A stretch of 63,774 nucleotides of DNA, counting the filler, from Folioceros fuciformis (Eukaryota): assembly GCA_049999805.1 (NCBI GenBank). It is 4 parts of 3 records of this genome, joined end to end, with 100 filler letters (N's around TTAATTAATTAA, not from the genome) between each part and the next. Parts side by side here need not be neighbours in the genome. Positions count along the whole stretch, not along the records: positions 18,494 to 43,645 come from JBNGIO010006281.1; 3 more parts are not named here. The stretch is one strand, 5' to 3'. A model generated the notes under the pieces. It was not told the DNA's origin and did no database searches. It worked only from the letters and a program-made list of their open reading frames with translations. This document shows positions 3,887 through 60,399 of the stretch, one piece after another. How positions within the stretch are numbered: position 1 is the first letter of the stretch; the number at the start of each line of letters is the position of its first letter. The translations under genes were made by a program, and so were the position numbers.

Positions 3887-6787
3887 ATGGGCCTCTGGAA
3901 CGCCATCGACTGCTGGCTGTCGGCGGCGAGCTTTCTGTTCCAGCATCCTGTGGCCATCGCATTTCAGATCCAGGTATGCTTTCCTATGCCTCATTGGGGA
4001 CCTTGCAATGTGGCTCCTGTCTGGGCTGCTACATGTCTCCAGGGTTGCTAGACGGGGACGCCCGGTGGATTTGATTAATCTGGAATCTGCTTCCCACTGC
4101 CTTTCTCGTTGGTCTGCAAGCGGGCTTTTTTTTTTACGAGATTTCAACGCCTGGTGTTTGTCTCATGGCTCAGGGATGCCTCATCTGCCTAGTTTTTGCA
4201 GCAGGATTCGTGTATGCAGCACGCACACGGTACCGCATTGCTCGCGCTCCGTTGCTTGGGCTCAGAGATTGTTTGGTAGGAAGTAGCTGAGATTGCGCTG
4301 AAGCGTGGACCATGGTATGGGTCGTAACGCAGGGCAAGAGAGCTTGAGGAACTGAAGGACAAGGAGAAGGATGGTAACAGTCTGTCCTTTTTGTACCCTG
4401 ACTTGAATGACCTGGAGCATTCAGTTCAGGCAAAGTTGCCGAGGGTGGGAGTCGTAATGCCTGTGAAAGGAGTAGGGGAGTACAGCTTCAGCAATTGGCA
4501 CAGCCAGGTGCGACCAGCCAAGCTGCCATCAGGGGATTATCGTTTTCAAGCATGTGTACTAGAACTGCTTTCTCTGGACATTTGTCTGAAAAAATGTACT
4601 GCAGGTTATTTCTCTATACGGAGGGCCCCTTGAGTTTTTGTTCGTTGTCGAGAGCGTGGATGATCCAGCTTATGATGCTGCTTCACAGCTTCTGTTGGAC
4701 CTGAAGGTTGTTATGTTCAAGACTCCCTCTGTTCCTTCTGTCTTGCAAACATTTGTTTGGCGGTGTAATCCAGCAGGAACTGCCAGACTGCCTATCTCAT
4801 GTTCTGTGTCTATTGTAGGGGCAAGTGCAAGCTAGAATAATAGTTGCTGGATTGGCATCTACATGCAGTCAAAAGATCCACAATCAGCTGGTACCACATT
4901 GCATCTGGGTAGTATAGGTTTTGGCACAACAACAAGCATCTAGAAATCTCTGCTAACCTGTGCGATGGTTTTAGGCAGGTGTGGAGTCCATGCACCCAGA
5001 TACAAAATATGTGCTTTTCCTGGATGACGATGTGCGTCTTCATCCGGGAACCATAGGTTGCCTTGTGGCAAATATGGAGGATCACCCAGAGGTGTGAATC
5101 CTCAAACCTGTGAACGATGTGGACATGAGAACCAAGTTTGTCCATGTTACCTGGTGCTTAGTCTATGTCAACCTCCGTCCTCACCAATTGCAGGTACTTA
5201 AGGATAGGGGGCACCATTGGCTTTTGGCAGATATTTATACAAACGGGTTATCCTTTTGATGTACCTTCAGGAAGTTTGGGGAGCTATTGCATTTACGAGT
5301 ATCACATGGTGAGATTGAGGTCGAAGTTTCTTTGTTGCTTTACTTTTACGGGACTTTCCATCTTACGCACGAGTTTGCACAGCCATGTTCAATAGGTTTC
5401 GCTACAGGTGGAAGGACCATCTTCTTGTGGGGGGGATGCATGATGGTGAGTAGGAACATGCAATCATACTGTTTCTTCGTGACCAATCAGCTAAGCTTCA
5501 CACTTAGTCTAGCCTGAACGCTTGTGGGGTCACTGTTCAGATGCATGCTGCAGATTTCAGGACAGATCGTTTTGGAATGGTCTCAGGGTTGCGCGATGGG
5601 GGCTACTCTGATGACATGACACTTGCTGCGGTTTCAGGTGTTTTTTGTTCGAAGTGCGGTTCTTGATGGTAGCACATGCTCCAGTTTCATGTATCAGCCC
5701 TTTACCACGTTTATAACGATTGCTGTGATCATGCTATACAGGGGCCAACAAACAAGTGATCTGGTCCCCACCAAGGGCTATATTCATTCATCCCCTCGCT
5801 AAAAACTTGAGCTTTCCTCGGTGAGACTGGAGCTACAGAGTCACTTTCACTCGTCTCTGGCAGATCTGAGTTTCTGTGTCTGACTGCTTGCACTTTGCCT
5901 GACTGGGTTTCTGTTGTTGCTTGGTTACAAATGCCTAGGTATTGGAACTACTTGAGAAAGCAGACTATCGTCCTTGAGACATACAACACGCCATTTAATT
6001 GGATGATGAATCGTGCTTTGTTCTCCTCCCATTGCTGGTTGTCTTGGGGCTTTTGCTTCCAATACATCACAGTGGTTGTGCACCTATTGGCTGCAGTGAG
6101 GACACTCATCGGGACTTCTCCCTTTGTTTTTGCCCCCACCGTGTCAGGTTTTAGCTCCTGAACCTTAGGTTGCCTGTTGTTTACTTGCATTGGATTCTCG
6201 TACTTGACTTGTTGTGCAACAGGATTGACACTGTCAGCGATGGTAGCGTTCTGCACTGTGGTTGAAGTTTGTACCATTCGAAATCTGTCCAAAGTGGAAA
6301 TCAACTTGTGCAACGCCTTGTCACCGGAAGCACGACCCGTGTCTTTTCAGAATTACAACTGGCTCCATGTAAGGGTGTTGCTCTCCTCTGCGTACCTCGT
6401 TGTTGCTGCTGGCTCATGTACCGAGCGGGCCTGCGGCTGATGTTTGTCACGAATCATGTGTGCAGGTTTTCATTGCTATGTTCGTGGATAATTTTCTGTA
6501 CCCTGTGTCTGCTTTTCATTCTCACATTTTTCAAACTATTGAGTGGTCTGGTGTTCGATACAAGCTGCGTTCTGGGAAAATTTCGAAGGTGACATGTCTC
6601 GATACGCCCACGGTCTGACATTGAACATCTCAGTTTCTGACGGTTTTGTTGCTTCCCGTTGCAGATGGAACGGATGGGTGGACTGGATACCACAAATCTG
6701 AAAGCCAAGCTTCATGATGATGATCTGGTTCGTCGACTTCCTCTCTCACTCTCATTCTTTCGAAAAAAGAAATTTAACTCGTTGTAA
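3887..6787 (+). CDS. GCS: Glucosylceramide synthase (ceramide glucosyltransferase), multi-exon
   Basis: Spliced translation: MGLWNAID..FQIQ/GCLICL../LEHSVQAKLPRVGVVMPVKG../CSQKIHNQL/..VLFLDDDV../IFIQTGYP../GGYSDDMTLAA../RYWNYLRKQ../IEWSGVRY. First exon 3887-3973; last exon 6665-6787 ends in TAA. Confidence 0.92.
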
Positions 6788-6994
6788 GGACTGTTCGGAA
6801 GACTGTATCACGTTATTCATTGGTTTCTCACGTATTGCAATTCTTTACCATAATGGAAGGTATTCACCGTGTATGACTGGTACTATCACCGTCGTCATTG
6901 GTCTCGTCAAGGCAATGTCACCAACTCTTGCCCTCGCAAGATGTTCAGAGTTTCTCGAGACGAGTGATCAGCCATTCTCACTGCACACAAATTG

Positions 6995-7900
6995 TCAGCC
7001 ACCCTTGGTTTTCCGCCTCCCATTCACTGGGACAGTCTGCCAGCCAGCCTCTCGCTCCTCAGCAGTCAATTGTCCAGCGCTCTTAGAGAAGGCAACTGCA
7101 CTCTTCGAAGGGGCTGGATCTAGATTCTGCTCAATATCCTCAATAGCAGCGTCTTCCATTTCGTCATCGTCCCCCTCAACACCCTCCTCTTCGGTATCAC
7201 TTGGCACGGCGACCTGCATGAGAAGGGCCACTCATGGGGTTAACAAAGTAAAAACAACACACATAAGTACCAAAGCAACCGCATGAACAAAGGCGAACAA
7301 GGGCTAACCGAGCGTCGAGGCGGCGGAGGAGCTTGAGCAAGCTTTTCAACAGTACTGAAGTCGCCGACGAGGCAATCTTCGTGTAATTCCATGATCTTGT
7401 CAGCAAGCTGGACGACAAGAACAGTTCATCGATTAATACTCTACCACAACGTTTCCAAGACCAGCCTCCAGTGAGCAGTAGAGCACCTGCACTTCCATAC
7501 CTCCTCTATGCTGCCATCGTCTGCCTCAGTCCCAAATAATTGCAACAACCTGTCGTCAAGCAGATTCTCAAGCTCGTCCACATACAGAGTTCCTGCCGAA
7601 CACATCCGACAAACACCGCATCAGCACGCAGATCTTGACCCTAACCTACTTGCAATAGATGCAGCACGACACTGGACCAGCCTGAGATACTCGATCTTTC
7701 GGAAGCAGTAACAGACCTTTGGTAGTGGTGAGCCACTTGAGTATGTCGCCATGAAGCTGTTGCACGTAAGCAGGATTGCCGTCGTTATGCTCCAAAGCAA
7801 GTTGCAGAGCCTCCCATCGGCACAAGTAGAGGCGCACACCTTCCCACAGCGCATCTCGTCCTTGCTGCGTTAGCACGGGTGAAGGACCCGCACCCGCCAT
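6995..7900 (-). CDS. TSR2: Pre-rRNA-processing protein TSR2, 4 exons
   Basis: EGVRLYLCRWEALQLALEH; LYVDELENLL..EADDGSIEE; LADKIMELHEDC..GDFSTVEKL; acidic tail ending in GWQTV..RRK. Confidence 0.88.
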
Positions 7901-18393: not shown

Positions 18394-18493
18394 NNNNNNN
18401 NNNNNNNNNNNNNNNNNNNNNNNNNNNNNNNNNNNNNTTAATTAATTAANNNNNNNNNNNNNNNNNNNNNNNNNNNNNNNNNNNNNNNNNNNN
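18394..18493. other. Assembly gap with artificial TTAATTAATTAA linker
   Basis: 100-bp block of N with a central stop-in-all-frames linker; the same structure occurs at 43646-43745 and 60300-60399. Confidence 0.97.
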
Positions 18494-29368: not shown

Positions 29369-30547
29369 TCAAAGGAGACCCGACTCTATCAGAGTCTTCT
29401 TTGTTAAAGCTTTGTCAACCAAGGTGAAAGTATGCTTAACAAGCATCCGATCGAGAGCCGTGGTTCTGTAGATCCGAAATTCCCGGTGTATGTTCGTTTC
29501 TTGATCTGTATTTTGCATATACAGATCAATGAACTTCTGGTGTATGTACTGGAAAGCATGCTCCACTTCGGCCCTCTGTTCCACTTCTCCCTGCCCGATG
29601 GTCAGAGGCTTGTAGTCCTTAAACCACTCACAAACAGACAGCGGGACCTGCAACACTTTCTTCTCGAAGATGTCGAACTTGTTGAGGAAGACGAGGAAAG
29701 AAGTTTTCTCAAACCATGGCTGTTTGAGCACCCATTCAAACAGTTCCTTCGTCTCCATCATCCGGTTGACGGTTTCATCTTCGAACAAAGTCTGGTCATA
29801 CTCGCTAAGAGCAGCACAAAATATAACCGCAGTGACACCATCAAACAGATGCATCCACTTTCTGCGCTCATTCCTCTGGCCACCAACATCAAACATCTTG
29901 TACACTTCGTCAGACGTGGCCTTCTTCTTGGCTTCATCTGTAGGGCAGAACTCAGTTTCAACAATGCCGGTGGTCCTCACCCGGGCATGCAGAACATCCT
30001 CCGCTGTAGGGATGTAGTTGCTGTCTGCCAGGCGATGGACATCCTCGAGGAAATAATGCGTGCAATCGGGAAGCTGCAATTCATTTGCCCGCTCATAAGC
30101 AGCCTGAATGGCAGGAACTCTCCACAGTGTCTCAATTTCCGTGGCAAGCTCCTGGGTCAGGGGCGGCATAGAATTGTTCGCCAACAGAGCAGAGATTTTG
30201 TCGGCCAGATCCTGGACCTCGGGTTGCAAAATATACTGCTCTGCCCCTTCCTCCTCAAGGGCAAATTCCTGGCATCCGTCCAAAAGAATTTTGACGAACT
30301 GATAGACATTAGCATGCACCACGGATGTGTAATTCTTGAGCTCAACATCATCGAAGCCGGTCTGAAACAACACTTTGATCTGCTTGAATATGGTAGACTT
30401 CCCGGACTCCCCTGCCCCCAGCAACAAGAGCTTGCGGACACGTTTTTCCGCCTTCCTTTCCTGCGCTATCCGGTGGTCTATCTCCACCTCCGCGACCTGA
30501 TCCCCTTCCTCCACCAGGTCGCCGCCTCTCGAGCAAGCACTCCCCAT
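29369..30547 (-). CDS. GPA1: Canonical heterotrimeric G protein alpha subunit (GPA1-like), 392 aa, intronless CDS
   Basis: MGSACS (Gly2 myristoylation, Cys5 acylation pattern); G1 GAGESGKS; switch I ARVRTTG; G3 DVGGQ; G4 NKFD; G5 TTALD; C-terminus ESGLL. The upstream 20 codons of the ORF track start at a GTG and are probably UTR. Confidence 0.95.
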
Positions 30548-32495
30548 ACTGCCTCTTGTGCATGAACAGACGGCACCAGTCCAGATCAAATTTGCACACG
30601 AAGACACGCACAGGCAGCAACCTGTCCTCCTGCACTAAATTTGTGTCCGGATTCTTGTGACCTCCCACACCAGTCCAATGTCAACCGTGCAATAAACATG
30701 CCGGACCCGTGATACCGAGACCCGAAGCGAGATTCACCAACGCCTGCGTCCGCCTGCGCATCAGAATCCCAAATCACAGTGCACCATCACATGAGGACGT
30801 GCGCAAGCAAAAACCATCCCAACACAGTACGGCTTAACAGAGTTGGCAGTTCCTCCCATCCACCTAACCGGCACACGCGGAACGCGTGGATGTTGACAAT
30901 CCGGCAGCAATGCACAGGAGCCGTGTGGGAAGGAATGACGCGACGCGCACACGTAATTTCCGAACGCGTGACGATGTCGAGTAACCAGCGAAACGGCAAA
31001 GCTACTCACAGCTGCGCAGCCTTGTGGTATGCCGGCAGCCGAAGCTCCAACCAGTTGCACGACGCAATGCATTCAAGGCAAGTCGGGACATGGTTGTGGA
31101 AGGAGCTGGCTCAGCCCGTTGGCGCTAGCTGAGAAGGGGAGTGGCAAGCCAACGGGGAAGTGCAGGGGGCGGGGCGGGGCGGGGCGGGGGGCTAGGGGGC
31201 GAGAGGCGCGAGGTCGAAGGTAGCACTAGCAAGAGACGTCCACCCTTTTGCGACGTTCGAGACGCCAGTCGATTCTTTAGTCTTTTCATGGACCAGAGGT
31301 GGACGCCGCGCCTTACCTCGTTCTCTGGCCTGCCTGCCAGCCCTTCCTCCCTCCCTGGTTGGGTGGTATCATCCATCCGTAATGCGTCTCTCTCCTTGAC
31401 TCAGTTTCCGACCCGTTGGGACTTGTCAGTCACGTGTGTCCTTCGGCATCCCACGCCGAGCTTGCTATACCCCCATGTGCTTTTGACCAAATTATAATAC
31501 CCAAAATGCCTACTAATAACTGTTTCCTCATACTTAGGCGTGGGTATTTATTGATGTAGACTCCATTAGGCCCGCGCCTCCATGGAATCTAGCATCTATG
31601 GCTTTCATATTTGCCCATCATGAACCCCCGAGCACCGGATTTTCATTCCACATAAAGTTCCTCCACATTGGGATTCATGATCCATTATCTTAGGGTTAAT
31701 TTCAAATTAATATAAATAACTTCTAATAATATAATGGCTTATGGCTTTCTGCAAGCTTATGGTAAGTAATAGGTAGTTAGAGGATGACAACAATAGAGGG
31801 GTTTTAGTCTCCCATTCTTAGGATTGTTTCTAGTCTTGGGGTAGATTACTTAAGAACGCTCATTTTTATTTCATATTAACTCTATTTAAATATATTATTA
31901 TGAAGAAAAATATGTAACAAATTCGAAACAGAAAAGGGAAAGAGGAAAGATAAGAAGACGGTGGAATGAGAGGGCGGAAAAGAAAGAAGGACGAGGGAGG
32001 AATAAAGAAAAGGAACGGGAGGGAGTCAATTATTACGGGACGGGCATGAGAGATGGTAGGATGGGATGGGACATGGAGGGACGCAGCATGAAGCGAGTAA
32101 AGGAGCATGGCGTTCGGGAACGGGTTTGACTATTGGCCAACGGGTTTGGGACGTCGGGCAAAAGGAGAGAGAGTGACAGAGAGAGAGAGAGAGAGACTAT
32201 GACACATGGTAGACGCAAGAGCATGCATGTGGTACGGAGAAATGTCAGCTATCCAGTAGGAATTTGGCAGCCCGCACTTTCCCACCCAGATGGCGACAGA
32301 CGTGGGCCACGCACCAGTTTCTTAATTTAGGCTTGCAAACCGCATTCCAGTGGACGCAGCAAGCATGTCCGATTGTGTACACCCGCCGCAAGGATTTAAC
32401 AGGCCGCCTCACAGCAACAGAAGCAGCCCCACCCCTTACCTGTTGTGGAAGGGACCAGCTTAGCAGCTACAGGATGGCGCATTGCCTGGTAGACG

Positions 32496-35400
32496 ATGGA
32501 TTACTCGTCCGGGCTGGCGAGCTGGGAGTTCCCGCCTCCCCGTTGGATGGGTTTGGTGATACCAGCCTGTGAGAGCTGTGGCTGCTGCCTGGTGAATTGC
32601 AATTTGTGAGCCATGAGGGAGCCGGAACCCGCCACGGGCTGCTTCGCCACTTTCGTTGCACTTCCTGTGTTCCAGGGATGCCTGGCCTTCCAGCCAGAGA
32701 CTTGGAGCACGATTAGCAAATCGGTGAAGGGAGTTCTGGTCGTGCTCCTTGTCTCTGCTTTGTATTTCGAGCTGGTCATGGTAGCAGGGCCGACTGGGCC
32801 GCTCAAGGAATTAGACCTTGTCTCGCTTGTGGCTTCTCTGCCCAATCTGGTAAGAGTGTCGTTTGGCCCGTGCATTCCTGGACACCTCTTCTTTTGCTCT
32901 ATTGCTGGTCCGGTACTTGCTAAGCAAGCTCCTGGATTCAGCTTTGTAAGAATGTCTTCTTACCTGCTCCAATTTGTCCTTTAACCCTGCTTTACTCACG
33001 TCTCGCGCCACGGATCGCAGACGCTGCTGAACGCGGCTCTCAACCGAACCGCCTTGCAAAATCTTTTTCTGGGAGGAGGAGCCAATGTCACCCTCTTTGC
33101 TCCTACAGATTTCGCGTTTCATGAGGTGTTCGAAAAATCTCTCCTCACATGTGTGCACGATTTTTATCAAGCTTCGCCTTGCACCTCGGATGCTGATCTC
33201 CTCACTGCAACGAATCTCGAGGCGATTGTCCTCAATCATTGTAAGCCTTTGCAGATCCAAGTGAGTTCCACAAGTAATACCCCCGTTGTTTGATACTGCT
33301 CGAATGGCATTCGTGGGACGAAACGCAATCACTTGTTGGAAAATGTTCCCAGCCCTTCTAGCTGTGAGAAAGATGGCATTGTTCCTGATGTTTCAGCGGT
33401 GCTCTCTCGTCTGTATTGAATTTTGGTCTGGAGCATGGATGACAATGTAGAGCGTTTGTCCTTCACACTGTGTCAAATGTCTTCTATGCAGTTGTCAATG
33501 GCATGTTTCACACAGAGAACCTGACTGATGGGCAACTACTGCAATCCCTTGGTGATATTGTCATACAGGTGGGATAACGCTTTATCGATGAACTTTTCCT
33601 ATGTTGTGACTGTGACGTAATCTGGCATCCATCTGGATGGGATTTAGTTGTTTTCCTCTTTCCTCCAGGTGACCGACTTACAGTCGGGCTTGTATATTGG
33701 AGATGCGAAGGTGGTTGATTATTTTCTTGCTTCACATGCTGTCATTCACGTCATCAATGGAAGCGTGCTGGGAAGTATCAACCAAATAACAGGTCTCTCA
33801 TCTGATGTATCATTCAACTCATCAGCAGTTCTTGCAGCCTCTAAGCTGGGAGACTTCGACATCTTTGACGATAATAAGGTGACGGACAGATACTCTGAAG
33901 TCGCAACCATTTCCATGCTACACAATGTGGTATCCTANNNNNNNNNNNNNNNNNNNNNNNNNNNNNNNNNNNNNNNNNNNNNNNNNNNNNNNNNNNNNNN
34001 NNNNNNNNNNNNNNNNNNNNNNNNNNNNNNNNNNNNNTACTCTGAAGTCGCAACCATTTCCATGCTACACAATGTGGTATCCTAACGTACAATTTTTCTA
34101 TTTTGTTCCTGATCACTGATAACATTTTAGCTTTGCAGAGAGGCAAAATGGCGGAAGACGTCCAATCGATCAACATACCTATTTACCAATATCACAGGGG
34201 CCTGGTTGGACTTCCTGATGGCGGCATGAAGAACCCTTCCGTCCTCTCTTTTGACCCCAGTTTGAACACAAAGGCCTTCGCCAGCCCCGATCTCAAATTC
34301 AAGTACCCAAGTACCTACGGGGTGAAGCGGCCAGCGAGCGATGAGGACCTTGCTTTTATGACTGTAAGATGTACATGCAAAACTTGTACGGAAGATTTTA
34401 TTTTGTTACTGTTGTGGAAGAGCAGCGAAGGCAGTGTTTGATTCCTGTGCATCCGTGTTTGACACCCGTCAAACTGTCCTATTGTATGACATGGTACTCT
34501 TGTGTGGCTATGATAATCACAGGTTTCAGAACTGGCCTACTTGGTCAAAAACCGGAAGGTAACATCTGCCGAGTTAGTGAAGGTCTTCACGGAACGGCTC
34601 CTTAGGTGGGTTTGGTGTGGATCTCCACCTTCTCGGTTGTCATTTGCCAGGAGAGGGGTTCCTCATTTGACGCAATGGACATTTCAAATTTTCAAAGGTA
34701 CGATGCAACTCTACAAGTGGTCATAACATACACGACAGAACTTGCCCAAGAACAAGCGGATGAAGCCGATGCCTTAATCAAGCGTGGAAAATATCAAGGT
34801 TTGGAGCGTTCTGGTACGATGTCCATTTCATGACTTCATACCACGTTACAAGTAACCTGCCATTAACTTCTGCTGTACAGGTCCTCTACACGGAATCCCC
34901 TATGGACTGAAGGATACAATAGCTGTTCCTGATTACAAGACGACGTGGGGTTCGACTTCCTTCAAAGACCAAGTCATCGATGAAGAAGCTTGGGTTTATA
35001 AGAAGTAATTTTCTCTCCATTTCCTCATGTTTTGTCTCTCCTTGTCATCAGGAGTACAAGCTCAACTTCTGTACTGCAGATTGAAAGCGGCAGGTGCAGT
35101 TCTGATTGCGAAGCTAGCATGTGGGTCCCTAGCATCCGGTGATATCTGGTTTGGAGGTCGAACCAGGAATCCATGGAACATAGCCGAGTTCACCCTAGGA
35201 TCGTCATCTGGCTCTGCTGCAGCCACCTCAGCAGGTACTACCAGGAAGTTGATGCCTGTGAGTCAGGTCGTCGTACACCCACTTCCTCCCCTTACAGTCA
35301 GATGTTACCTTTCCGGTACTCGAAGCAGCTCTGGTTCCATTTGCAATCGGGTCGGAGACATCTGGATCAATCGTATACCCTGCATCCCGCACTGGAGTAA

Positions 35401-36481
35401 CAGCCTTCAGGCCCACTTTTGGCATGGTTGGACGATCAGGGACGATGAGCCTCTCTGAAAGCCTGGTAGGCGTTCTGACGGGCTCACACTACCCATGTTC
35501 CATGCAGAAAGTCTCTTCCTACTGATGTCGACACTTGATTAGTGCAGGATAAATTAGGTCCATTCTGCAGGAGTGCTAGCGACTGCGCCATCATTCTGGA
35601 CGTGCTACGAGGAAAGGATCCAGAAGACTTCTCCTCAAAGGATATCAAGCTGAAGGACCCTTTCGGTATCGACGTGTCGAAGCTGACTGTCGGCTACCTG
35701 GCGGATGCAGATGTCGAGGTGCAGCAGCGGATCTCTTCCTCTAGTTCCACAAGCATCATTCGTAAGCATCATATGCATATTTGCTCGGCATTGCATCTGA
35801 CGGTCCGATGGCTTTGTGCGCCGCCTGTTGTAGCTGCTGAACATTCTGGCTGCCAAGCGAGTGAAGTTGGTGCCCTTTCAACTCGCCTACAGCGTCGACT
35901 CAGCTCCGGCACTGCTTGGTTTAATCATGGAGGCCGACATGCTTTCCCATTTTGACCACTGGCAGAGAGCTGGTCTCGATGACGAGTACGAGGACCAAGC
36001 GGACTGGCCTGTAGCAGCCCGCCGTGCCCGCATGATTTCCGCCGTGGACTACATTCACGCTCAGAGAGTTAGGGGCCTGCTGTCTCAAGAAGTGCTGGCA
36101 TCAATTTCAGAGTTTGATGCCATCATCGGAAACGCGACTGACCGGGAAAAAATTGCGGTGACTAACTTGGTGGGTTTGCCCGTGTTGGTTCTTCCCACGG
36201 GAATGGAGATCAGTCGGGACGCACCTCGTGGAGACAGCCAAGCACGGACGATTATCAGCGCAGGGATTTACGGCGCCCCCTTCAAAGATGGCGAGGTTCG
36301 TTCTTTATGGGAAATGCATGTTCTGCGGGTTGTGATTTCATGTAACAACACGCGGATCATCCGGCTGCAGGTTCTGGCACTGGGCATAGCGTATCAAAGT
36401 GTAACGGGCCATCATCTGCTCCATCCGCCAATAGACGATTTTGTTTCTCATCCAATTTCTCCAAACTATTCTGTGATGTAG
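32496..36481 (+). CDS. FAS1 (fasciclin) domain - amidase signature family fusion protein with N-terminal membrane anchor; start is 32496 or 32613
   Basis: TM GVLVVLLVSALYFELVMVAG; FAS1 motifs NVTLFAPTDFAF, IVLNH and VIHVING; amidase motifs GPLHGIPYGLKD, RTRNPWN..GSSSGS, GSETSGSI and DKLGPFCRS; TAG at 36479-36481. One intron spans the gap at 33938-34037. Confidence 0.85.
33938..34037. other. Assembly gap (100 N) with duplicated 47-bp flanks
   Basis: 33891-33937 is identical to 34038-34084; the gap at 45978-46077 shows the same pattern. Confidence 0.95.
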
Positions 36482-37116
36482 GATGCTAACGTTGTATGTA
36501 TACTCACAACAGCTCGGCACGCGGAGAGGTAACGTTTTCGACCACTGTTGCAACCGTGTGCACTGCTTGCCGTCTCTGGTTGTCGTTGTGATACGCCCGC
36601 AGTTGTGATACACTAGACCATGTTTCTCGAATTGCGTGACGAGATCTCAAGATAGATGTGCCAGAACTTCAGCTGATGCAAACAATCTCCTCGATTCTGA
36701 ATATGAGACTTTGGCATACAATGAACCTTGGGCTCTTGAAGCCAGGTGAAGTACATACTTTCTAAGCTTGTTCTGAGCACCGCAGAGTTATCTTATACAA
36801 GACGTACACAAGTACAAGTGTTTCACTCATCCTGGTGTCAGGCTCACCTGGCGCCAGCTGAGTGCTACACATACATAGCTTCTCCCTGGCGTTGCAATAA
36901 GCCCGCACCATCTCGGTCATCCTCAGGTTAGTGGATGTGGAACGGGAAGCGAAAGAAAGCTCAAAGGCGTTTCTGGATTAATGGGGGCTACATGTTGTTG
37001 TGGGAATGCAAAAACGGAAGTTTTACGGTCGCCCGCCTCTCGGAATCCTTGCTTTCCTGACAAGTAATTTGTGTACTCGTCGGATCTCAAACTACGGAGA
37101 CCCAGCAGCGCTGAGG

Positions 37117-37998
37117 TCAGGAACAGAACTCCTCTCCCGGACTTGAGGAGATTTGAAAGTGCCACAAGTCGCCAACCACCTTCACCAAGTTCCTGACACA
37201 CAGGAATTCCAAGGTATATGCGAACTCTGAAGGGCGGGAAGCATCGTGAAGAAAGATGTCAAGGTGGCCAGGAGCCGTCCGCGTGCGAGCCATCACGGAG
37301 GAGGTGAAGATGGGGCTCATCCGACCTGGAAACGACGAATTCCGGTAGCTACGAGGGCCATCAATAAGAATGACGTCCCACTGCACCGTAAGCAGGTCCT
37401 GCGGCAGCTCCCTGGAGAGCGCTAAAGGGCAGGAGGACGCATGGATGGGCTGATAAGGCCGACATTCCTCCCTGCGCCTACCCCGAGCTATGTCCAACAA
37501 CCTGTCCGAATCCCCCAAACTGGTGCTGTAGTCCACCTTGTACGTCTTCAGCTGCGGATGGCGCTCCCTCATCCGATCTATCCATTCCTGGCTCTCATCC
37601 AGAAACACCGTCCTCCCGCCGTAATTGAAAGTTGCCCACAGCAGGCTGTCGTGCCACATTCCGAACACCAGGAAATTGCAGGGCGATCTCGCCAACAGCG
37701 CTGCCATCACCGCGCCTATCTCCTCCTGGGATTGCTGCGGAACCTCCGACGTGGTGGCGAAGTGCAGAAGCGTCCGGGCGACGTCCTCGGGGACGCGACT
37801 CTGTCGGCTGATTCCGACGTCGGCACTGAAGAAGCTCACTGCAATGACCTTCGCGCTGCTCAAAGAAACGAACAGCAACCAGAGGAACACCGCTGACATG
37901 ACGATGGGAAGTAGCGTCGCAGAAACAGGATGCCGTTTCCTCACGCTCCTCATAACTTGCAAGCTTGATGGAACCTGAGCCTGTAACTGCTGCAACAT
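37117..37998 (-). CDS. DUF579 polysaccharide biosynthesis protein, IRX15-like, intronless
   Basis: Type II TM; SPCNFLVFG, GGRTVFLDE, ECRPYQ, WDVILIDGPR, PGRMSPIFT, EFLC, LWHF. The DGPR variant matches the IRX15 subgroup rather than GXM/AGM (DAP). Confidence 0.9.
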   Translation of the reverse strand: MLQQLQAQVPSSLQVMRSVRKRHPVSATLLPIVMSAVFLWLLFVSLSSAKVIAVSFFSADVGISRQSRVPEDVARTLLHFATTSEVPQQSQEEIGAVMAALLARSPCNFLVFGMWHDSLLWATFNYGGRTVFLDESQEWIDRMRERHPQLKTYKVDYSTSLGDSDRLLDIARGRRREECRPYQPIHASSCPLALSRELPQDLLTVQWDVILIDGPRSYRNSSFPGRMSPIFTSSVMARTRTAPGHLDIFLHDASRPSEFAYTLEFLCVRNLVKVVGDLWHFQISSSPGEEFCS

Positions 37999-38486
37999 CC
38001 TTGCGTCGCTGTACCGAGCAGCTTAATTCTCCTGGTGACCGCCAGTCACTGCCTCGAGCACACAGCAAGCTAGCTGACACTGCGTCCCTGCACTGATCTT
38101 TCATATATTCTGACTTGGTACATATATATCAACTGATCAACTGAACCTGAACAATGACCACCCTGGTCGCTTTTCTGTGTCCAACCTGCGTGCGTCTGAT
38201 CCATGTTGAACCTTTAATGTGGGCCTCTTTCAGTCCTCTGACGATAGCCTCGACGGGGCCCGGGAACTGTTGGGTTGGGCTGTAACCTATCGTAACGGAA
38301 AATCACTATGCACTTACAAGAAGCCAGGCCCTGTAGGGGACCGTAAACGTTGGCTCGTTGGTTTCACAGTCATCTTACTTCAGGCGTGAAAGCGATTGGA
38401 GAGAGTTTACTACCTACAGTCCCAAAAAACATACCATCATGATGGCACCGATGTGTTTCTTCTCCCAACACAAGCTGCCTCTTCAG

Positions 38487-40581
38487 CTAGCTACCCCTGT
38501 ATGTGCTGTAGGCATAAGGAGACAAGAGAACAGGCACATGGAAGTGCTCAGCTGCTTGAGAGGGAGTGACTTGAAACACAATTGAAACGAAGGGATAGAA
38601 TGGCTTTGATCCATCAGGCCTGGCACCAGCTACTCTGAGAAAGTACTGCTCGGTGTGAAACGTGAGCCTGTATCTCCCAGCAGGAATAGCGTTGGAAAGG
38701 GGCATCAGGGGACCAGATCGGCCATCATCATCTGTGACAGAGGTGCCTAGAATCGTCCACTCTCCCTTGTCCAAGTCCTTCGAGCTATGAAGTACTGTTG
38801 CCGGTTTCTCCTTCCACCAATCTAGGGTAACGTCAATGCCCGAACCCGGTCTCCCGCGTGAAACATCCAAGACATGAGTTGTGATGGGAGGCCGGGTTCG
38901 TGTGACTGTTGGACCTTGCTCTGGGCTTGCAACAGCAGCTTGCTGGCTGTTGTCGATCCCTGATCCAGTGATGTGTGCCTCTATTTGAGTCAGCCTTCGA
39001 TGCACGGGGCCCTTACCTGTGGAACAACATGATCAGTAAACTGCTCAAACAACTTCAACAGAACCTCCTGGACCTCACAACCTGGACGGGAGAGTTAACA
39101 AGGGAAGCTACAAGTTTAAGACTCGATCGCGCGTCCAAGTTGTTTCTCAGAAAGCTCAAAACCCACCTTTCCACAAACTTCTGGGGTTCTTATTCACAAT
39201 TGTTTCACAGGAAAGTCGGGAGCCTGAAAAATCAAATCAGAATGGGAAGATGCACTAAGATCCTGCGCATGGAAGGATAGCACAAGCAACTTAAGCTCAA
39301 CCACCAGAGTCTGTACTTCCATTAACGGCCTCACTACAAACCACATCCGACGCCATAGACCAAACTGAACTTGGAAACAAGCACTGAACCATTACCATCT
39401 GCCGGAGCTGCATCATCTGCAGAAGCACCAGATGGAGCGCGTGAACTGGTAACGTGGTCCAAATTTGGGACTTCAGAGTGCCTCTGGGCCAAGCCTTCAA
39501 TCTTCTTGAGGAGGCGAAGCTCTGTTATCTTCTGTTGTTCTGCTGCTGCCACTTGAAATTCGATGATCGGTCTGTTGGTAAAGCGAGACTGGATGCACAA
39601 GTTGCAAAGAGTAAGTGCATACTTGCATAGGGACAAAAACACTTTCTCATACGCTAAAGTGGATACCAGTCTGTCTTTCAGACGTAACAAGAAGAACGAT
39701 CTTGTTGTGTCTGCAACTGTTTTGCAACCCCAGCAACAATGATGGCAGCGCCACTTCTTCTTTTCACCCAGACAAGTATGTCAAGTCAAATAAAAAAGCA
39801 GTAAATTTATCTACCTTCAATACTGCTAGAATCTCAGCACTGCTCTTCCCAGTCGCACATATAAGAAAGATAAACCCGAACTTCTTTTCGTACTGCCGAT
39901 TCCACTCTGCCAAATCCTAAGCACGCAGGTAGACAGAGGGCTCAGCTATCTACCTTTCCACTGCAAAAAAAAAAAAAAAAAAAAAAAACAAGGCCGAAGT
40001 GACCTCATTCACAAGGCTAGCAGATAAAACCTTCAAAATCTGGTCACTGGCAGATCCCAAGGCTTCGGATTGCTCTTCCGCACATACCCTGTTCCATTTC
40101 AGCTGTCAGGCACTGGCAAGAATCTTCGTTCACATGACTCAATACCAATTCCACACAGTGACCGGGTGCCGCGCTCGACATCCTAATCAGTCCGACGCTT
40201 AACTTGATTCCCTTCTCCCTGACCTTTATTAGCAAGGAAATACGCACTCAGAGGCAAACTTCCTGCGAAGCGTATCGACATCACCAATCCGAGGGTGCGC
40301 TACAAACGCTTCCAGCCATCCCAGGATGTCAACCTACACCCAAGTCGCATACAGTAAGGAAACCACATGAGATGCATCGATTGGCCACAGGGGCCAGACG
40401 AAGGAGAAGACGGAAAATGGGATGGGACCTTGCTCCACCAGATCGTCCGTGAAGCCTCGATTGCCTGGTCGAGGCCATCGAAAGGTCCTAATTTTGCAAT
40501 TTCAGCCGCAAATTGCGTGCTCCCGCAGCAGGACAGCCATTCATCCACAGTCAGGTTCACCAGCTCTGGCTTTGCTGCCAT
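38487..40581 (-). CDS. TTL: Bifunctional uric acid degradation protein (OHCU decarboxylase + HIU hydrolase; allantoin synthase)
   Basis: WLSCCGS, WLEAFVAHPRIG, YEKKFGFIFLICATG, EQQKITELRL, then RPPITTHVLDVSRGRP..FHVPVLLSPYAYSTYRGS. Confidence 0.95.
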
Positions 40582-41368: not shown

Positions 41369-43597
41369 CTAGGGCTTGTATGGCGCAAAAACCACGCACG
41401 AGTTGTGACCTCCAAATCCAAAAGAGTTGGAAATGCCTGGAAGCCAACAAAACAGAAGTGAATTCCGGGCAATAAAATCACAAACTTCTCCCCTGCACAG
41501 GAAGACGACAACTTGGACTTACCAACGTGTACTTCGTGTTGCTTCTTAACATTTGGGACTGTGTCAAATGTGACTTCGGGCTCCCGGTTCTGTTGAAAAA
41601 AACGATGGAAACAGCAGGTTGGAACGTTTGCCTCTAAAACTGAAGTAGGTGAAAACAGAAATGCAAACAACGCAAGGTTGAGCACGGGTACAGTGTCCAC
41701 TTCAAACTCACAAATTGGTTAATCGTTGGGTGCACCCATCCAGTTGTGATAGCCTTGATAGTGGCAATAGCCTCCAGTCCTCCAGCCGCACCAAGACAGT
41801 GACCGATCATAGACTGCGCACAGCAAAATCAACTTAATCCCTTGTATGCATAAAATTTACACACATGCAACCAACCCCAGAAGTTCGATACCTTGGTCCC
41901 ATTCATCTTGATTTCTGAGCCGTCCTTGAAAACTTTCTTCACTGCGTTTACCTCTGCCAAGTCACCGGCAATGGTGGAAGTTGCATGCGCATTGATGTAA
42001 TTCACCTGAGCAAAATAACAGAGAGAGCAGTACGGACCCCTTAGCATACAGCAAACAGCCAAGGGAATGAAGTCGCATTGAGCAGCGTTTGATACCTCTT
42101 CGGGAGAAACACCTGAATCCTCCAGGCTTTTCTCAATGCATGTGGAGACTCCAAGCCCGTCAGCACGAGGGTCAGTCATGTGATAAGCATCACAAGTAAC
42201 AGCGCCACCCAGGTATTCGGCAATAATAGGCGCTCCTCGAGCCAGGGCATGCTCCAAGCTTTCCATGATCTGTACCATAAAGTATAGGAGAAACCTTAGA
42301 GACCAGAAAAAATGGAGACCACACATTCCTACAACGGTATTGAGATTAAGGACGTGCGATGTACCAAAACACCGGCACCCTCTCCCATGACAAAGCCTTC
42401 CCGATCCTTATCCCAAGGCCGAGAAGCCTTTTGAGGTTCGTCATTACGTTGCGAAAGAGCCCTGCAAGCAATAAAACCCCCGAGGCCCACCGGAATGATT
42501 GCTGCCTCCGTCCCTCCAGCGATCATGACGTCCGCCTCACCTCTGCGGATGTGGTTAGCAGCTGCGTAGAAACAATAATTGGCCGTTGCACATGCTGTGG
42601 AGATGGAGTAATTTGGCCCCATGAGCCCGAGCTGAATGGCCAGCATAGCAGAAGCCATGTTGGTAATAGCGTAAGGAATGAAAAAGGGAGTAATTCGCTG
42701 GTGCCCCTGCTCAATGAGTGCCTTAACGCCATCAGAGAAGACACTAAGCCCGCCCATGCCTGTACCTATGAGCACGCCAGTTTTTTTCTTGTCCACCTGT
42801 AGAAGAAGAAGTCGAGGGAAACTCGTCCAAAACATCAGCAGTGGTCCTGGATTTTCAAATCTTCGTCACAACAGGAAACAAGCAAGCTGGTGCACAGTCA
42901 CCACGACACATCCAGCCGGCATGCAAGACCTCTACCTGATCGATCAAGTCTCCACCCAAATTTGCATGCTCCAAGGCCTTCTTCCCACTAACTAGGGCAT
43001 ATCTTATGCAGTCGTCAAGGCGCCGGTCATTCTTCCCATCAATGTACCCCTTGGACGAGAAGTTCCGGATCTGTCCACCAAATTTAGTCGGGAATTTGGA
43101 CACATCAAAGCGGTCGATTATGCTGATTCCGCTCTCGCCTTCAAGCAGCTTATCGTAGAAGGTGTCGACATCATTTCCAAACACAGACACGACGCCCATG
43201 CCCGTGATCACCACTCTCTTCTTCGGGTCCGTCTCTCTCTTCGGCGCGGAGACAGTGGCAGCCATGGACACAGCTCCACCCTTACGGCATTCTGCCACCA
43301 AACCACGACGCAAATGCCGGTGTGACCTCCAAGCAGCCGAAGACCACTCCACAACTCAAATTCAGACTCGGAAAGAAGTGCATGCGCGGCGAGTAGCTCA
43401 CCTGACCTCCCTCTCCGGCCAGCCCCGGCATTCAAAGCCCTGAGCAAAGCCACGTCCGAGCCGGCAGCTTCCCCTGTCCTTAGTCCCTGGAAGCGCACAA
43501 GGGAATGGTCTCTGCGAGAACCACGGCACGAGGAGGAGGCCCCGACTCCAGCAAACGAGGCTGACACAGCGACGCCAGTGCAGCTGGCTGCAGCCAT
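41369..43597 (-). CDS. KASI: Plastid 3-oxoacyl-ACP synthase I
   Basis: Transit peptide; [65 protein letters not shown]. Confidence 0.95.
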
Positions 43598-43745
43598 TTC
43601 GGAGCTCGCTGGTCAGCAGCAAGAGCGAAAGCAGAATGGGACTCCNNNNNNNNNNNNNNNNNNNNNNNNNNNNNNNNNNNNNNNNNNNNTTAATTAATTA
43701 ANNNNNNNNNNNNNNNNNNNNNNNNNNNNNNNNNNNNNNNNNNNN

Positions 43746-46700
43746 GTCATGTGCTGTCCTCTTAGCATGTATTGTGAAGAGGAATATTGTCCAGAAGCCC
43801 TCCAAGAAACAAAAATTTGCTTGGACAGTCAAGCGCCATCATGGTATCTGGAACAACAGCTATTGTTCTCATTTTCAGATAGAATGTTTCAACAACATCT
43901 TCGTGTAAATTGGAGCACGTTTCAGTACACTTTGTGGTGAAGTGGGGCCGTCTCTGTTCATAGTCGATACTCAATTCCGCAAAGCGGTTCCAGTAGAGGT
44001 GAAAGTGCCAATGGCTCTTTACCGGTTGGCTTATGGTGATAAGCTTTGAACCATTGGTGTCTTGTTTGGGTACAGCACGTCTACTGTTGGAAATGTTACG
44101 CATGGCTTTTGCGCTGCTCTTGTCACTAAATTGCACTCTGTTTATATTTCATGGCCTAGCCTCGATATGCAATGCAAGTACTCTCAAGCGTTTGAAGCAC
44201 TACAAGGTATCCCTTTTGTGGTTGGTGCGGTTGATGGCTCTCTATCCCCATTCTTGGGCCATCACATGCCAAGGTAGATTACTACAATCGAAAAGGGTTT
44301 TACTCGCAGCTCCAACTTACTGTCACTGCAAAATGCATCATTTGAGATTACGATTTTGGTTGACCGGATAGTCTAAATGACTGGAATTTATTGAAGAGAA
44401 CAAGGTTGGGTCGTAATTGTGAAAGAGGCATGCTACGCCACTATAGTTTGGTTGGTGATGCAGGTTACTGGCCCAGATTGTATGTACTGACTCCTTTCCG
44501 TGGTTCTCATGATGGCTTGACACCTGTGCAAAAGCATTGAAACTATGCACAGAGTAGCATTTCCATGGCGGTGGAACAAGCTTTTGGTATCCTGAAGGCA
44601 AGATGGAGGTGGTTGTTGACGCACCTAGATATTAGCATTGCAAACGTGCCCAGGGTAGTCCAAGCCTGTTTATTACTACACAACATTTGTATCATACATG
44701 AAGAATGGCTGCAGGAAGCTGCTGTAGAGTGTGAATTGCAATTGGGTGTGGAGAGTACATACACTGACAATCCACAAAGGCAAGCAGCATTGGCAGAACA
44801 TGATGCTTTAGCTTTGCTTCACCGGGTTCGATTGGATGCAAGGCATCCACTGCAAGAGGATGCCATGTCACCCCTTGATGGAGCTGAATTGACACAGGGG
44901 GGTATTGGGAAGGAATGAGAAAGCAAGAGCTTCTTGCATTTGTGCTATTTGCAAGTCCCTAGGGGCATCCGTTTGGTGGAGGGGGATGGTGAAGAATAGG
45001 AAATAAGAGCATGTTACTTTTAAGATAGCCGTCCACAACGTGCACAATCCACAACATGCCTTGTCTTAAAAGTCTATGTCATTCAAGTTTGTCCAAGGCT
45101 TAAACAGCAAATTGATCACAATTCTACAACATAGAACTTTAGCTATCCTCATTGCACCGCACTAGTGCTGCAACCAACGTCTCTAGTAGTGCAAGCTTCT
45201 TGTCCTCCCTACTAGATATCTTCGCTATCATGTTATCCATGGACTGAATAGCCTTACCCACGTAACTGGCCTCGGAAGCAATAGTTGACTTGGTTTTATT
45301 TTTTAACACTAAAAGCTTCACTACCATTACTTTATCTATCAGCACTTGCAATGTCAGCCTCAGGATCAATATTATTGAAATTGCAACCTCTCACTAGCGA
45401 GTTATGCGAATCGGCATGTGCCGAACAAACTACATGGGCCCTTGAATGCATGTATTGGTCCACCAAATCAAACCACTGACAAGTGTCAGACCTGGCATTC
45501 CCTAAAGTGGCATTGGCTGCTTTGTCCTCTTTGTATTCGTTATAAATGGACTTCCACTTCTGCTAGCATGCTTCAGCAGTTTTATCAAAGTTGTAGCATA
45601 TTGGCGAAATTCTGGTTGCCCCTTTGCCCCAAATGTCAATGCCTGCACATCAAAAAGCATAAGCCAAAAGTTACGAAGCCTATAGCTAGAAGCTTAAAGT
45701 TGCATAAATCAAACACGACAACCTAAGATGCTCACCTAGCTTTCTTCCTTTGTTCGAACTCAGCATCCCATGAGTCTGTAACATGTATCAATTGCACAAT
45801 ATGGTTGGCTTTTCACCCTAGATCTGGCTTTTTTCCCGTAAGGTCAATGTAGGTATCTGAAGGTTTAGATGCACTCATAGATAGCCTGCTACATTTCCTA
45901 GCCCGGTTTGAGGAAGGGAGTGTTGTTACATCCAAATTAATTATTGCAGGTGTCTTGGGTGGAGCCTGCACATATGGNNNNNNNNNNNNNNNNNNNNNNN
46001 NNNNNNNNNNNNNNNNNNNNNNNNNNNNNNNNNNNNNNNNNNNNNNNNNNNNNNNNNNNNNNNNNNNNNNNNNNNNNTCCAAATTAATTATTGCAGGTGT
46101 CTTGGGTGGAGCCTGCACATATGGAAAGTGGGTCATGGGAAAAGGTAAGGGCACAATAGCATTTGGAAGGGAGACACCAAAAGGTTACGTGGAAGGGGGG
46201 GCTGAATCCATCATCAGATCTGGGGCTAAAGAGGGGTGCAAGGGAGTGGACACATAGTTTTGGAAGGACTCGTTGGAGGCTCTATAAAAGGGGTCCAAAC
46301 CTACAAAAGCTGACAAATGCAATGAAAATGTGTGGAGTCAACCATACTAAACAAATACACTGAAAATCTGTTTAGTACCTAATGCAACCACGGCCGAGTC
46401 TGGAGGCTCAAAATTTCTCCACTGTTGGTGAGGAGTAGGTGTGGCAGAGTGACAATATTGCTTAGAGAGAACAACAAACTTGAATAATGAATAATGTATA
46501 TATGATTACAAAGTGTTGGTCTTAAATACTAAACCCTAAGTAACATGTCTAACCCTAGTCTAGGTAACCCAGCGACCGTGGTTACTATAATAAACTATGG
46601 GGTTTAACACGGAGGAAGCTACAACAACATAGCTGAAAGTGAGAAACAAGAGCATACGAAATTTGAACTTGCCAATAAGGGCTGCAAGCCCGAAGACGGA

Positions 46701-60132: not shown

Positions 60133-60399
60133 TTGCCCGTTACCCCCTTGGACACCACTGGTTTCCCCTTATCCAAAATTATCAGCCTCACAACTAGCAA
60201 AAATGAGGAGTGCTTCTCAACACCCTCCCCTCCTCTTTCGGATCAGATCATCCCTTCACCTCAGATCATCCTGCACCCTTCAAAGACCTCCATCTCCAGN
60301 NNNNNNNNNNNNNNNNNNNNNNNNNNNNNNNNNNNNNNNNNNNTTAATTAATTAANNNNNNNNNNNNNNNNNNNNNNNNNNNNNNNNNNNNNNNNNNNN

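Follow-up and report, generated by a model that had tools for sequence, protein, structure and literature searches.

Does one gene of Folioceros fuciformis encode both a fasciclin (FAS1) domain and an amidase, or do two neighbouring genes only look joined? The window, the whole stretch of DNA analysed here, comprises 63,774 nucleotides (nt), filler included, from 4 parts of 3 records of assembly GCA_049999805.1; the locus, at 32613–36481 on the + strand (positions are those of the window), lies in the part taken from JBNGIO010006281.1. An earlier note on this DNA had proposed a FAS1 domain fused to an intact amidase, as a candidate membrane-anchored cell-surface hydrolase. With considerable confidence, we read the locus as a single protein-coding gene of 13 coding exons, with a product of 770 amino acids (aa), an orthologue of a FAS1-amidase family of mosses, liverworts and lycophytes, for which we propose the role of a secretory amide hydrolase with a FAS1 tether. 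A FAS1 domain and an intact amidase are indeed joined in a single gene, which is an ordinary member of its family, not a new architecture.

FAS1 and amidase exons share one spliced transcript

The exon model was built from tblastn blocks of two homologues, the Ceratodon purpureus protein P0004 and the transcript-derived P0001, together with splice sites. Blocks of both queries form a colinear series from 33021 to 36442, and the coding sequence (CDS) of 2313 nt that results has AG/GT at every exon border. The window is eukaryotic in character, with short GT..AG introns and a G+C content of about 48%. Contigs of four public runs (X1, X2, X3 and X7) were aligned to 32300–36700. X1 holds 0.55 of the sampled words of 34038–36600, about the exonic share, compared with 0.05–0.07 for 18 other runs. 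This run represents the window's own species (4 pieces, each at least 99% alike); the contigs of X2, X3 and X7 are 90–95% alike and, judged by sequence, derive from related organisms.

The contigs are intron-less, with GT..AG joints at or within a few bases of all 12 predicted intron borders (32849|33021, 33240|33492, 33568|33669, 33878|34139, 34363|34523, 34605|34698, 34798|34881, 35004|35080, 35234|35329, 35465|35548, 35718|35834 and 36295|36371). Among the joints listed, at least three of the four runs share the same borders for 11 of the 12 introns; the joints 32849|33021 and 33568|33669 occur in all four runs, and 33240|33492 in X1, X3 and X7. At 35004|35080 the joint is exact in X1 and X2; in X3 and X7 it begins at 35001, and three other letters separate its sides. 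X2, X3 and X7 each have a single contig (of 2997, 2957 and 2942 nt, respectively) that extends from exon 1 towards the last exons. One further X1 contig, with a depth of 10 (36–76 for the spliced contigs), is colinear over 33211–33521, that is, across the intron 33241–33491, and represents either retention of the second intron or slight genomic carry-over into the run.

At the junction between the FAS1 and amidase exons, the X1, X3 and X7 contigs pass from 33876 to 34137 (33878|34139 once the cut is shifted by +2) and skip 260 nt with GT..AG ends, which bears out the phase-0 splice that had been predicted there; X2 joins 33872 to 34137 with 4 other letters between the sides. Because a contig can show a joint with splice-site ends only if reads span it, a single spliced transcript carries both the FAS1 and the amidase exons in all four organisms, and the fusion claimed for this gene is seen as a single spliced mRNA. 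Protein alignments likewise run straight across the junction, at 55–58% identity over about 690–720 residues, with the homologues from Ceratodon (P0004), Calypogeia (P0011) and Selaginella (P0010).

The alternative is that two adjacent genes were misjoined: a small FAS1 protein read through past 33878, an amidase starting at the in-frame ATG at 34148, and intergenic DNA hidden in an assembly gap. Read-through of exon 4 does meet a TAA after 20 more codons, the ATG stands 9 nt into the next exon, and a gap of 100 N lies between the FAS1 and amidase exons, at 33938–34037 inside the junction intron (33879–34138). However, the 47 nt before the gap are duplicated exactly after it, as overlapping contig ends look, so the gap would hide little or nothing, and it looks like an assembly artefact. 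With the duplicate collapsed, the junction intron measures 113 nt, within the size range of the other introns; contig depth is zero over 33917–34063, which covers intron and gap. The residues at the junction are also colinear with those of fused homologues (..KLGDFDIFDDNK|RGKMAED.. versus ..KLADADFFNTSK REEMAEG..). With the GT..AG joints of X1, X3 and X7, the two-gene reading is already contradicted, and we leave it next to no chance.

The 5′ end and the start codon

The single mRNA begins with a leader at 32370–32612 (+), where X1 record 1 is colinear over 32370–32848 with 0 differences and has no joint at 32591/32676. This removes the possible first exon at 32496–32591, whose Cys cluster had been thought open to S-acylation: read unspliced, the ATG at 32496 opens a 37-codon open reading frame (ORF) at 32496–32609 (MDYSS...CESCGCCLVNCNL) that contains CESCGCCL and ends in TGA. 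By the colinearity of X1 and the list of leader ORFs, the Cys cluster belongs to an upstream ORF outside the protein; X2 has C, not A, at 32496. Translation most likely starts at the ATG at 32613, in frame with the remaining CDS. Thus, four of the five elements seen by the earlier note (the hydrophobic stretch, the FAS1 exons, the phase-0 splice and the catalytic motifs) hold, and its first exon does not. At the other end of the transcript, the 3′ untranslated region extends to at least 36700 (X1 record 3 covers 36369–36700).

The 243-nt leader contains two overlapping upstream ORFs, at 32474–32572 (32 codons) and 32496–32609, and a third in-frame ATG at 32547. The upstream ORFs may regulate translation.

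A full-length FAS1 domain

Coding exon 1 (32613–32849) holds the hydrophobic segment and the start of the FAS1 match at residue 69 (32817). Exon 2 (33021–33240; 51% tblastn identity to P0004) carries the H1 motif TLFAPTDFAF, exon 3 (33492–33568) the middle of the domain, and exon 4 (33669–33878) the H2 motif VIHVING and the end of the FAS1 match at residue 215 (33779), followed by a conserved connector of the form SxDVSxNxS...KLxDxDIF. With AG/GT borders and compatible phases, exons 2–4 are those drawn by the earlier note.

Scanned alone, the exon at 33021–33239 reached 20 bits with Pfam Fasciclin (E 8.1e-4; cut-off 22), and neither of the other two FAS1 exons matched alone. A FAS1 hidden Markov model (HMM) was built from the FAS1 columns of nine FAS1-amidase homologues, four of which score 62.8–70.5 bits in Pfam Fasciclin and five of which carry a precomputed PF02469. 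The spliced window protein matched this HMM at E 1.7e-44 over residues 69–215, covering HMM positions 4–150 of 150 (147/150). In P0001–P0004, Pfam finds both Fasciclin (62.8–70.5 bits) and Amidase (178–188 bits). The fold was assessed on a model of the Ceratodon orthologue, not of the window protein: residues 34–200 superpose on the FAS1 domain of TGFBIp (5nv6) with Z 18.0 and a root-mean-square deviation of 1.9 over 137 aligned residues, and the same region also matches fasciclin I (1o70, Z 16.0), stabilin-2, periostin and MPB70. By homology to proteins that pass Pfam and by the fold modelled for the orthologue, the window gene is predicted to have a full-length FAS1 domain. A special closeness to the FAS1 domain of the carotenoid-binding AstaP was considered and rejected: AstaP matches in structure with Z 16.3, but in sequence it reaches only E 0.01, compared with 1.1e-14 for TGFBIp.

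Exon 2 also encodes a Cys pair, C123 (33150–33152) and C133 (33180–33182), which is invariant in nine aligned fused proteins; P0124 and P0125, two further fused proteins, have two Cys in the same FAS1 region, as judged by eye. The H2 motif of the window protein has a one-residue insertion relative to the fused homologues.

Fasciclin-like arabinogalactan proteins (FLAs) are not known to have an enzyme domain and carry Pro-rich [AST]P glycomodules and, usually, a C-terminal glycosylphosphatidylinositol (GPI) signal. The window protein resembles them as a plant FAS1 protein with a secretory-type N-terminus. Unlike them, it has an enzyme domain, it lacks arabinogalactan-protein glycomodules (4.8% Pro and 7 [AST]P dipeptides in 770 aa), and its C-terminus (...HPISPNYSVM) is not hydrophobic and offers no GPI signal. 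By glycomodules and GPI signal, FLA membership was rejected, and FAS1 in plants is not restricted to the non-enzymatic FLAs.

An intact amidase domain, probably of bacterial type

Past the junction, exon 5 (34139–34363) encodes a conserved pre-amidase segment (RGKMAEDVQSINIP...DEDLAFMT) that is colinear with the homologues. This segment, of about 110 aa, is conserved in seed-plant homologues too and, in part, in bacterial ones; a linker (connector) HMM matches it in all 122 plant proteins. A word search with exon 34139–34363 for longer proteins gave 32 candidates, none at E ≤ 0.001, which reflects the limit of a word search, as the exon aligns well to its homologues. Exons 6 (34523–34605) and 7 (34698–34798) are placed by contig joints and tblastn. 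Exon 8 (34881–35004) carries the catalytic Lys395 in GLKD (codon 34910–34912), exon 9 (35080–35234) Ser467/Ser468 in GSSSGS (35201–35206), and exon 10 (35329–35465) the nucleophile Ser491 in GSETSGS (35367–35369). Exon 11 (35548–35718) is placed by contig joints, exon 12 (35834–36295) encodes the C-terminal half of the amidase fold (54–58% identity to P0001–P0006, with contig joints), and exon 13 (36371–36481) ends with the stop codon at 36479–36481.

Pfam Amidase matched the consecutive exons 8, 9 and 10 with 28.1, 27.5 and 40.8 bits (cut-off 27) at profile positions 46–83, 87–140 and 142–185, and exon 11, under the cut-off alone, with 22.6 bits at positions 188–245. The catalytic roles were assigned by alignment to GatA and by the roles usual in the amidase family. 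In the alignment, K395, S467/S468 and S491 correspond to K370, S442, S443 and S466 of P0004, which are invariant in 78 of 78 aligned sequences; the motifs are intact and stand where the earlier note had placed them. By HMM and catalytic triad, the window gene is assigned to the amidase signature (AS) family, PF01425.

An initial AlphaFold model of the orthologue, from a 9-sequence alignment, had a predicted local distance difference test (pLDDT) score of 49.7 and served for the FAS1 domain alone. When 78 sequences were aligned, the Ceratodon model reached pLDDT 90.5 and a predicted template-modelling (TM) score (pTM) of 0.86, and its larger domain matched the folds of GatA, fatty-acid amide hydrolase (FAAH) and peptide amidase, with TM scores by target of 0.74–0.80 for GatA and the peptide amidase Pam and 0.60–0.63 for Arabidopsis FAAH (AtFAAH). 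Pam (1m21/1m22) and GatA (4wj3, 2df4) share the AS fold and the triad with the Ceratodon orthologue, with sequence E-values of 1e-30 and 4.9e-41, respectively. Both differ from it in being only about 25% identical and in having no FAS1 domain, and the equivalog threshold for GatA is not reached.

Many seed-plant homologues are named as the GatA subunit of the glutamine-hydrolysing tRNA-dependent amidotransferase, and GatA also provides the best matches among solved structures. Against this stand the scores with the NCBIfam equivalog TIGR00132, 153.9 bits for P0004 and 171 bits for P0010 with a cut-off of 481.1; the same model run on one window exon gave no match. A signal-like N-terminus, a FAS1 domain and an extra pre-amidase segment would also be unfitting for a GatCAB subunit. 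The true Arabidopsis GatA is probably AT3G25660. In the part of PMC12586335 available, AT3G25660 is listed as a different gene, whose single mutant is embryo-lethal. On sequence grounds, the amidase module is probably of bacterial type, and it is not GatA, despite the database names of the seed-plant relatives; that the window gene nonetheless encodes a GatA subunit is extremely improbable.

The names PpFAAH8 and 'FAAH2' suggest instead a fatty-acid amide hydrolase, that is, an N-acylethanolamine hydrolase. The fold does match Arabidopsis FAAH (Foldseek E 4.9e-29), some homologues are named 'Fatty acid amide hydrolase' in their sources, and PpFAAH8 is placed among the FAAH paralogues in the available text of PMC7033180. 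In sequence, however, the Ceratodon orthologue stands far nearer to GatA (E 4.9e-41) and to peptide amidase (1e-30) than it does to FAAH (1.7e-16). In the same text of PMC7033180, PpFAAH8 is less than 24% identical to the other paralogues and no assay of it is given, and PMC12586335, in its accessible part, describes high-order Arabidopsis mutants including faah2 (AT5G07360) with no prominent phenotype in the auxin context tested. An FAAH identity of the window protein is improbable. Neither of the names that databases give to members of this subfamily, 'GatA' and 'FAAH', is supported by the thresholds and similarities tested.

The fusion in non-seed plants and its absence in seed plants

A profile search returned 3843 matches, of which 120 were listed; the statements on taxa cover the named proteins. 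PF02469 and PF01425 occur together in 10 of the 120 homologues listed, and the named fused proteins among them are those of Ceratodon purpureus (KC19_1G142400, P0004, 739 aa), Selaginella moellendorffii (LOC9644225, P0010, 747 aa), Calypogeia fissa (P0011, 751 aa) and Diphasiastrum complanatum (O6H91_04G083000, P0070, 671 aa). In the remaining 110, PF01425 occurs without PF02469, and those that are named all come from seed plants. The FAS1 HMM agrees: it matches 11 of 122 proteins (the ten fused ones and the window protein) and none of the remaining 111 homologues, even at E ≤ 10, which supports the statement of the earlier note that seed-plant members lack FAS1.

The fused proteins of non-seed plants share with the window protein the order of parts (hydrophobic N-terminus, FAS1 with the Cys pair, connector, AS amidase), the triad and an end-to-end identity of 51–58% (55–58% to P0004, P0010 and P0011); they differ from it in that the window protein has about 25–40 extra residues before the hydrophobic segment. 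Its best BLAST match among 121 homologues is 61.5% identical over the amidase part (P0017) and 58% identical at full length. P0017, named 'Gb_32412', we take from this prefix to be a Ginkgo protein. It belongs with the seed-plant 'amidase family protein' orthologues (also Acorus P0005, Phoenix P0014 and Theobroma P0047), which resemble the window protein in the connector and amidase, at 55–61% identity, and in most cases in an N-terminal hydrophobic segment, and are unlike it in having no FAS1 domain. We presume that these orthologues include AT5G07360, a link drawn from a published table row and not from sequence comparison. In that row of Yue et al. 2012 (PMC3493653), the moss 'Amidase family protein (2)' has AT5G07360 as its homologue in Arabidopsis; the available part of PMC12586335 names the same gene 'FAAH2'.

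The earlier note had left open that the architecture might be undescribed. It is already annotated in Ceratodon (UniRef 'FAS1 domain-containing protein'), Selaginella, Calypogeia and Diphasiastrum, and Haq and Kilaru 2020 (PMC7033180), in the text available, state that PpFAAH8, with the longest N-terminus of nine moss paralogues, "includes fasciclin domain". This Physcomitrella protein is probably an orthologue of the window gene, matched by that description and not by sequence. In the literature searched we found no functional study of the fusion, the sentence in the available part of PMC7033180 being its only mention. The window gene is therefore an added member of an annotated family that has been briefly mentioned in print. 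What it contributes is a clean gene model, backed by spliced contigs and corrected at its 5′ end, for a conserved and uncharacterised family of plant enzymes.

More distant members were sought in a library clustered at 50% identity, where 28 of the 150 best representatives, chosen by length or by reach into the N-terminal part of the profile, were scanned with Pfam. Besides P0070, the fused representatives among those 28 are P0123, P0124 and P0125; P0124 and P0125 are only 37–40% identical to the window protein. An Atlas search with P0125 returned only amidase clusters, with scores of 0.88–0.89 that lie below 0.9 and serve as a lead only.

A tree was computed from the columns occupied in 60% or more of the rows; the FAS1 columns were thereby excluded and those of the amidase left. 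All plant sequences form one clade, with a support of 100 in the Shimodaira–Hasegawa-like approximate likelihood ratio test (SH-aLRT), and the earliest branches within it are P0125 and P0124. They are followed by an unresolved group of land plants, to which the window protein belongs, and then by a clade (support 96) in which four fused proteins stand with the FAS1-less seed plants (support 99). On this tree, two changes of the FAS1 label are needed, which we read as one gain and one loss at the seed-plant clade, with the deep branching order provisional. One mRNA, the end-to-end alignments and the position in the land-plant clade place the window protein in the FAS1-amidase orthogroup of non-seed plants. 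The phyletic pattern, with FAS1 in bryophytes and lycophytes and not in seed plants or in the nearest bacterial relatives, provides a basis for comparing the location and cleavage of the amidase before and after domain loss.

Two of the listed database models extend beyond the amidase: P0006 (Acorus calamus, 1365 aa) into Integrator subunit 7 domains, and P0007 (Carnegiea gigantea, 1257 aa) into a second stretch without Pfam matches on record. Both are probably merged gene models, not true fusions.

Bacterial relatives of the amidase

In a scan of prokaryotic species genomes, the best 80 loci were kept; they are mostly from Bacteroidota (Chitinophagaceae and allies), in both metagenome-assembled genomes and isolates such as Lacibacter cauensis and Sediminibacterium roseum. 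These apparently exported bacterial amidases resemble the plant protein in a conserved triad and in 37–52% identity (best segment) over about residues 192–733 of the Ceratodon protein, part of the pre-amidase segment included. None of the best 80 loci matches Ceratodon residues before 192, the FAS1 part, and the FAS1 HMM, whose reach is limited by its plant origin, gave 0 matches at E ≤ 1 in 2715 six-frame ORFs of those loci. Because the bacterial loci match neither the FAS1 part nor the FAS1 HMM, the FAS1 fusion looks eukaryotic. The representatives nearest in the tree are 47–66% identical to such bacterial loci, and several begin with twin-arginine-like signals, as read from their N-termini, so the bacterial relatives also look exported. 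Their pattern fits the entry in the Yue et al. 2012 table (PMC3493653), which, in the portion available, lists the moss 'Amidase family protein (2)' as acquired from bacteria.

At 12 of the 42 bacterial loci with full flanks (L008, L012, L018, L024, L025, L029, L031, L041, L044, L062, L070 and L071, at about 4500–7300 in each), the next downstream ORF of at least 130 residues lies on the same strand and encodes a peptidase with PA, M28 and TFR-dimer domains, similar to glutamate carboxypeptidase II. At 5 of the 42, an Amidohydro_3 gene lies downstream instead, and 4 of these have an alpha/beta hydrolase upstream. By analogy, the peptidase neighbourhood gives a weak hint of peptide-type (peptide-amide) substrates, many of the loci coming from one bacterial family.

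Five more distant and presumably bacterial relatives of the amidase (P0145, P0156, P0218, P0232 and P0188) carry BNR, beta-lactamase-type, acyl-ACP thioesterase or DUF6265 domains in fusion with it, so that several partners have been combined with this catalytic module.

The N-terminus and a proposed secretory role

Where would such a protein act? A hydropathy scan confirmed the hydrophobic N-terminal stretch of the earlier note: GVLVVLLVSALYFELVMVAG, at 32730–32789, forms residues 40–59 and is the only 19-residue window of the protein with a mean Kyte–Doolittle value of at least 1.8. A hydrophobic N-terminus also occurs in 75 of the 111 FAS1-less homologues, by a threshold of our own (a 15-residue Kyte–Doolittle mean of at least 2.0 within the first ~100 residues). 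Six N-x-S/T sequons lie in the FAS1 and connector part of the window protein and, with the Cys pair, would fit an extracytoplasmic protein. From these sequence features, we infer an amide hydrolase of the secretory pathway.

Residues 40–59 may instead be an uncleaved signal anchor, giving a type II membrane-anchored cell-surface hydrolase with FAS1 and amidase outside the cell. This is suggested by the 39 residues that lie ahead of the only hydrophobic segment. TMpred is not known to separate signal peptides from anchors. The single transmembrane helix that it places at residues 13–32 of PpFAAH8, as given in the available text of PMC7033180, favours an anchor, but such evidence does not tell an anchor from a signal peptide. 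The short N-regions of the full-length fused homologues shown are typical of cleaved signal peptides, the Cys-cluster exon lies outside the CDS of the mRNA, and the C-terminus lacks the hydrophobic tail that a GPI anchor would require. We consider the signal anchor somewhat unlikely, though a serious contender.

Several points weigh against the reading of the locus as a FAS1-tethered secretory hydrolase. The runs are not on record as RNA; only the GT..AG joints of the intron-less contigs speak for an RNA origin. The sole Pfam Fasciclin match on a window exon lies under the gathering score, single exons having been scanned. The tree comes from a quick search, and P0124 and P0125 sit on long branches in it. 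The hydrophobic segment begins at residue 40, with 39 residues preceding it, whereas in the full-length fused homologues shown it begins within the first 25 residues and is signal-peptide-like; a signal anchor or another start codon is possible. Finally, both location and hydrolysis are deduced from sequence features.

With the secretory reading, we propose that the protein would enter the secretory pathway, that its AS domain would hydrolyse an amide bond of a substrate, and that FAS1 would serve as a binding or tethering module keeping the enzyme at the wall, at the membrane or at a ligand site. FAS1 would have been present in the land-plant ancestor and lost once on the seed-plant branch, and the seed-plant orthologues would retain the hydrophobic N-terminus and the amidase after this loss. 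A wider and rather doubtful suggestion is that an early streptophyte acquired an exported bacterial amidase, with its nearest relatives today in Bacteroidota, and welded it to a eukaryotic FAS1 domain; the docked extracellular enzyme would process an apoplastic amide signal, and seed plants would later have dropped the docking. Docking could then be to a polymer of the wall, to a partner in the membrane or to a hydrophobic ligand; the signal could be a peptide-amide or a lipid-amide. If true, non-seed plants would keep a mechanism for targeting an amide-cleaving enzyme that has no characterised counterpart.

Neighbouring features of the window

On either side, the FAS1-amidase gene is flanked by unrelated genes of the opposite strand. 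Downstream are an IRX15/IRX15L/GXM-type ORF at 37117–38022 (−; 206 bits), a transthyretin/HIUase ORF at 38487–39032 (−; 112 bits) and beta-ketoacyl synthase exons at 41829–43355 (−). The 100-N scaffold gaps at 33938–34037 and 45978–46077 are unlike the paired 44-N runs with 12 bases between them at 18394–18493, 43646–43745 and 60300–60399, which may be masking. Upstream, an uninterrupted ORF of 421 codons at 29369–30634 (−) encodes the whole domain of a G-protein alpha subunit (Pfam G-alpha, 350 bits). In plants, genes for G-alpha usually contain many introns, and this one may be intron-poor or retro-copied.

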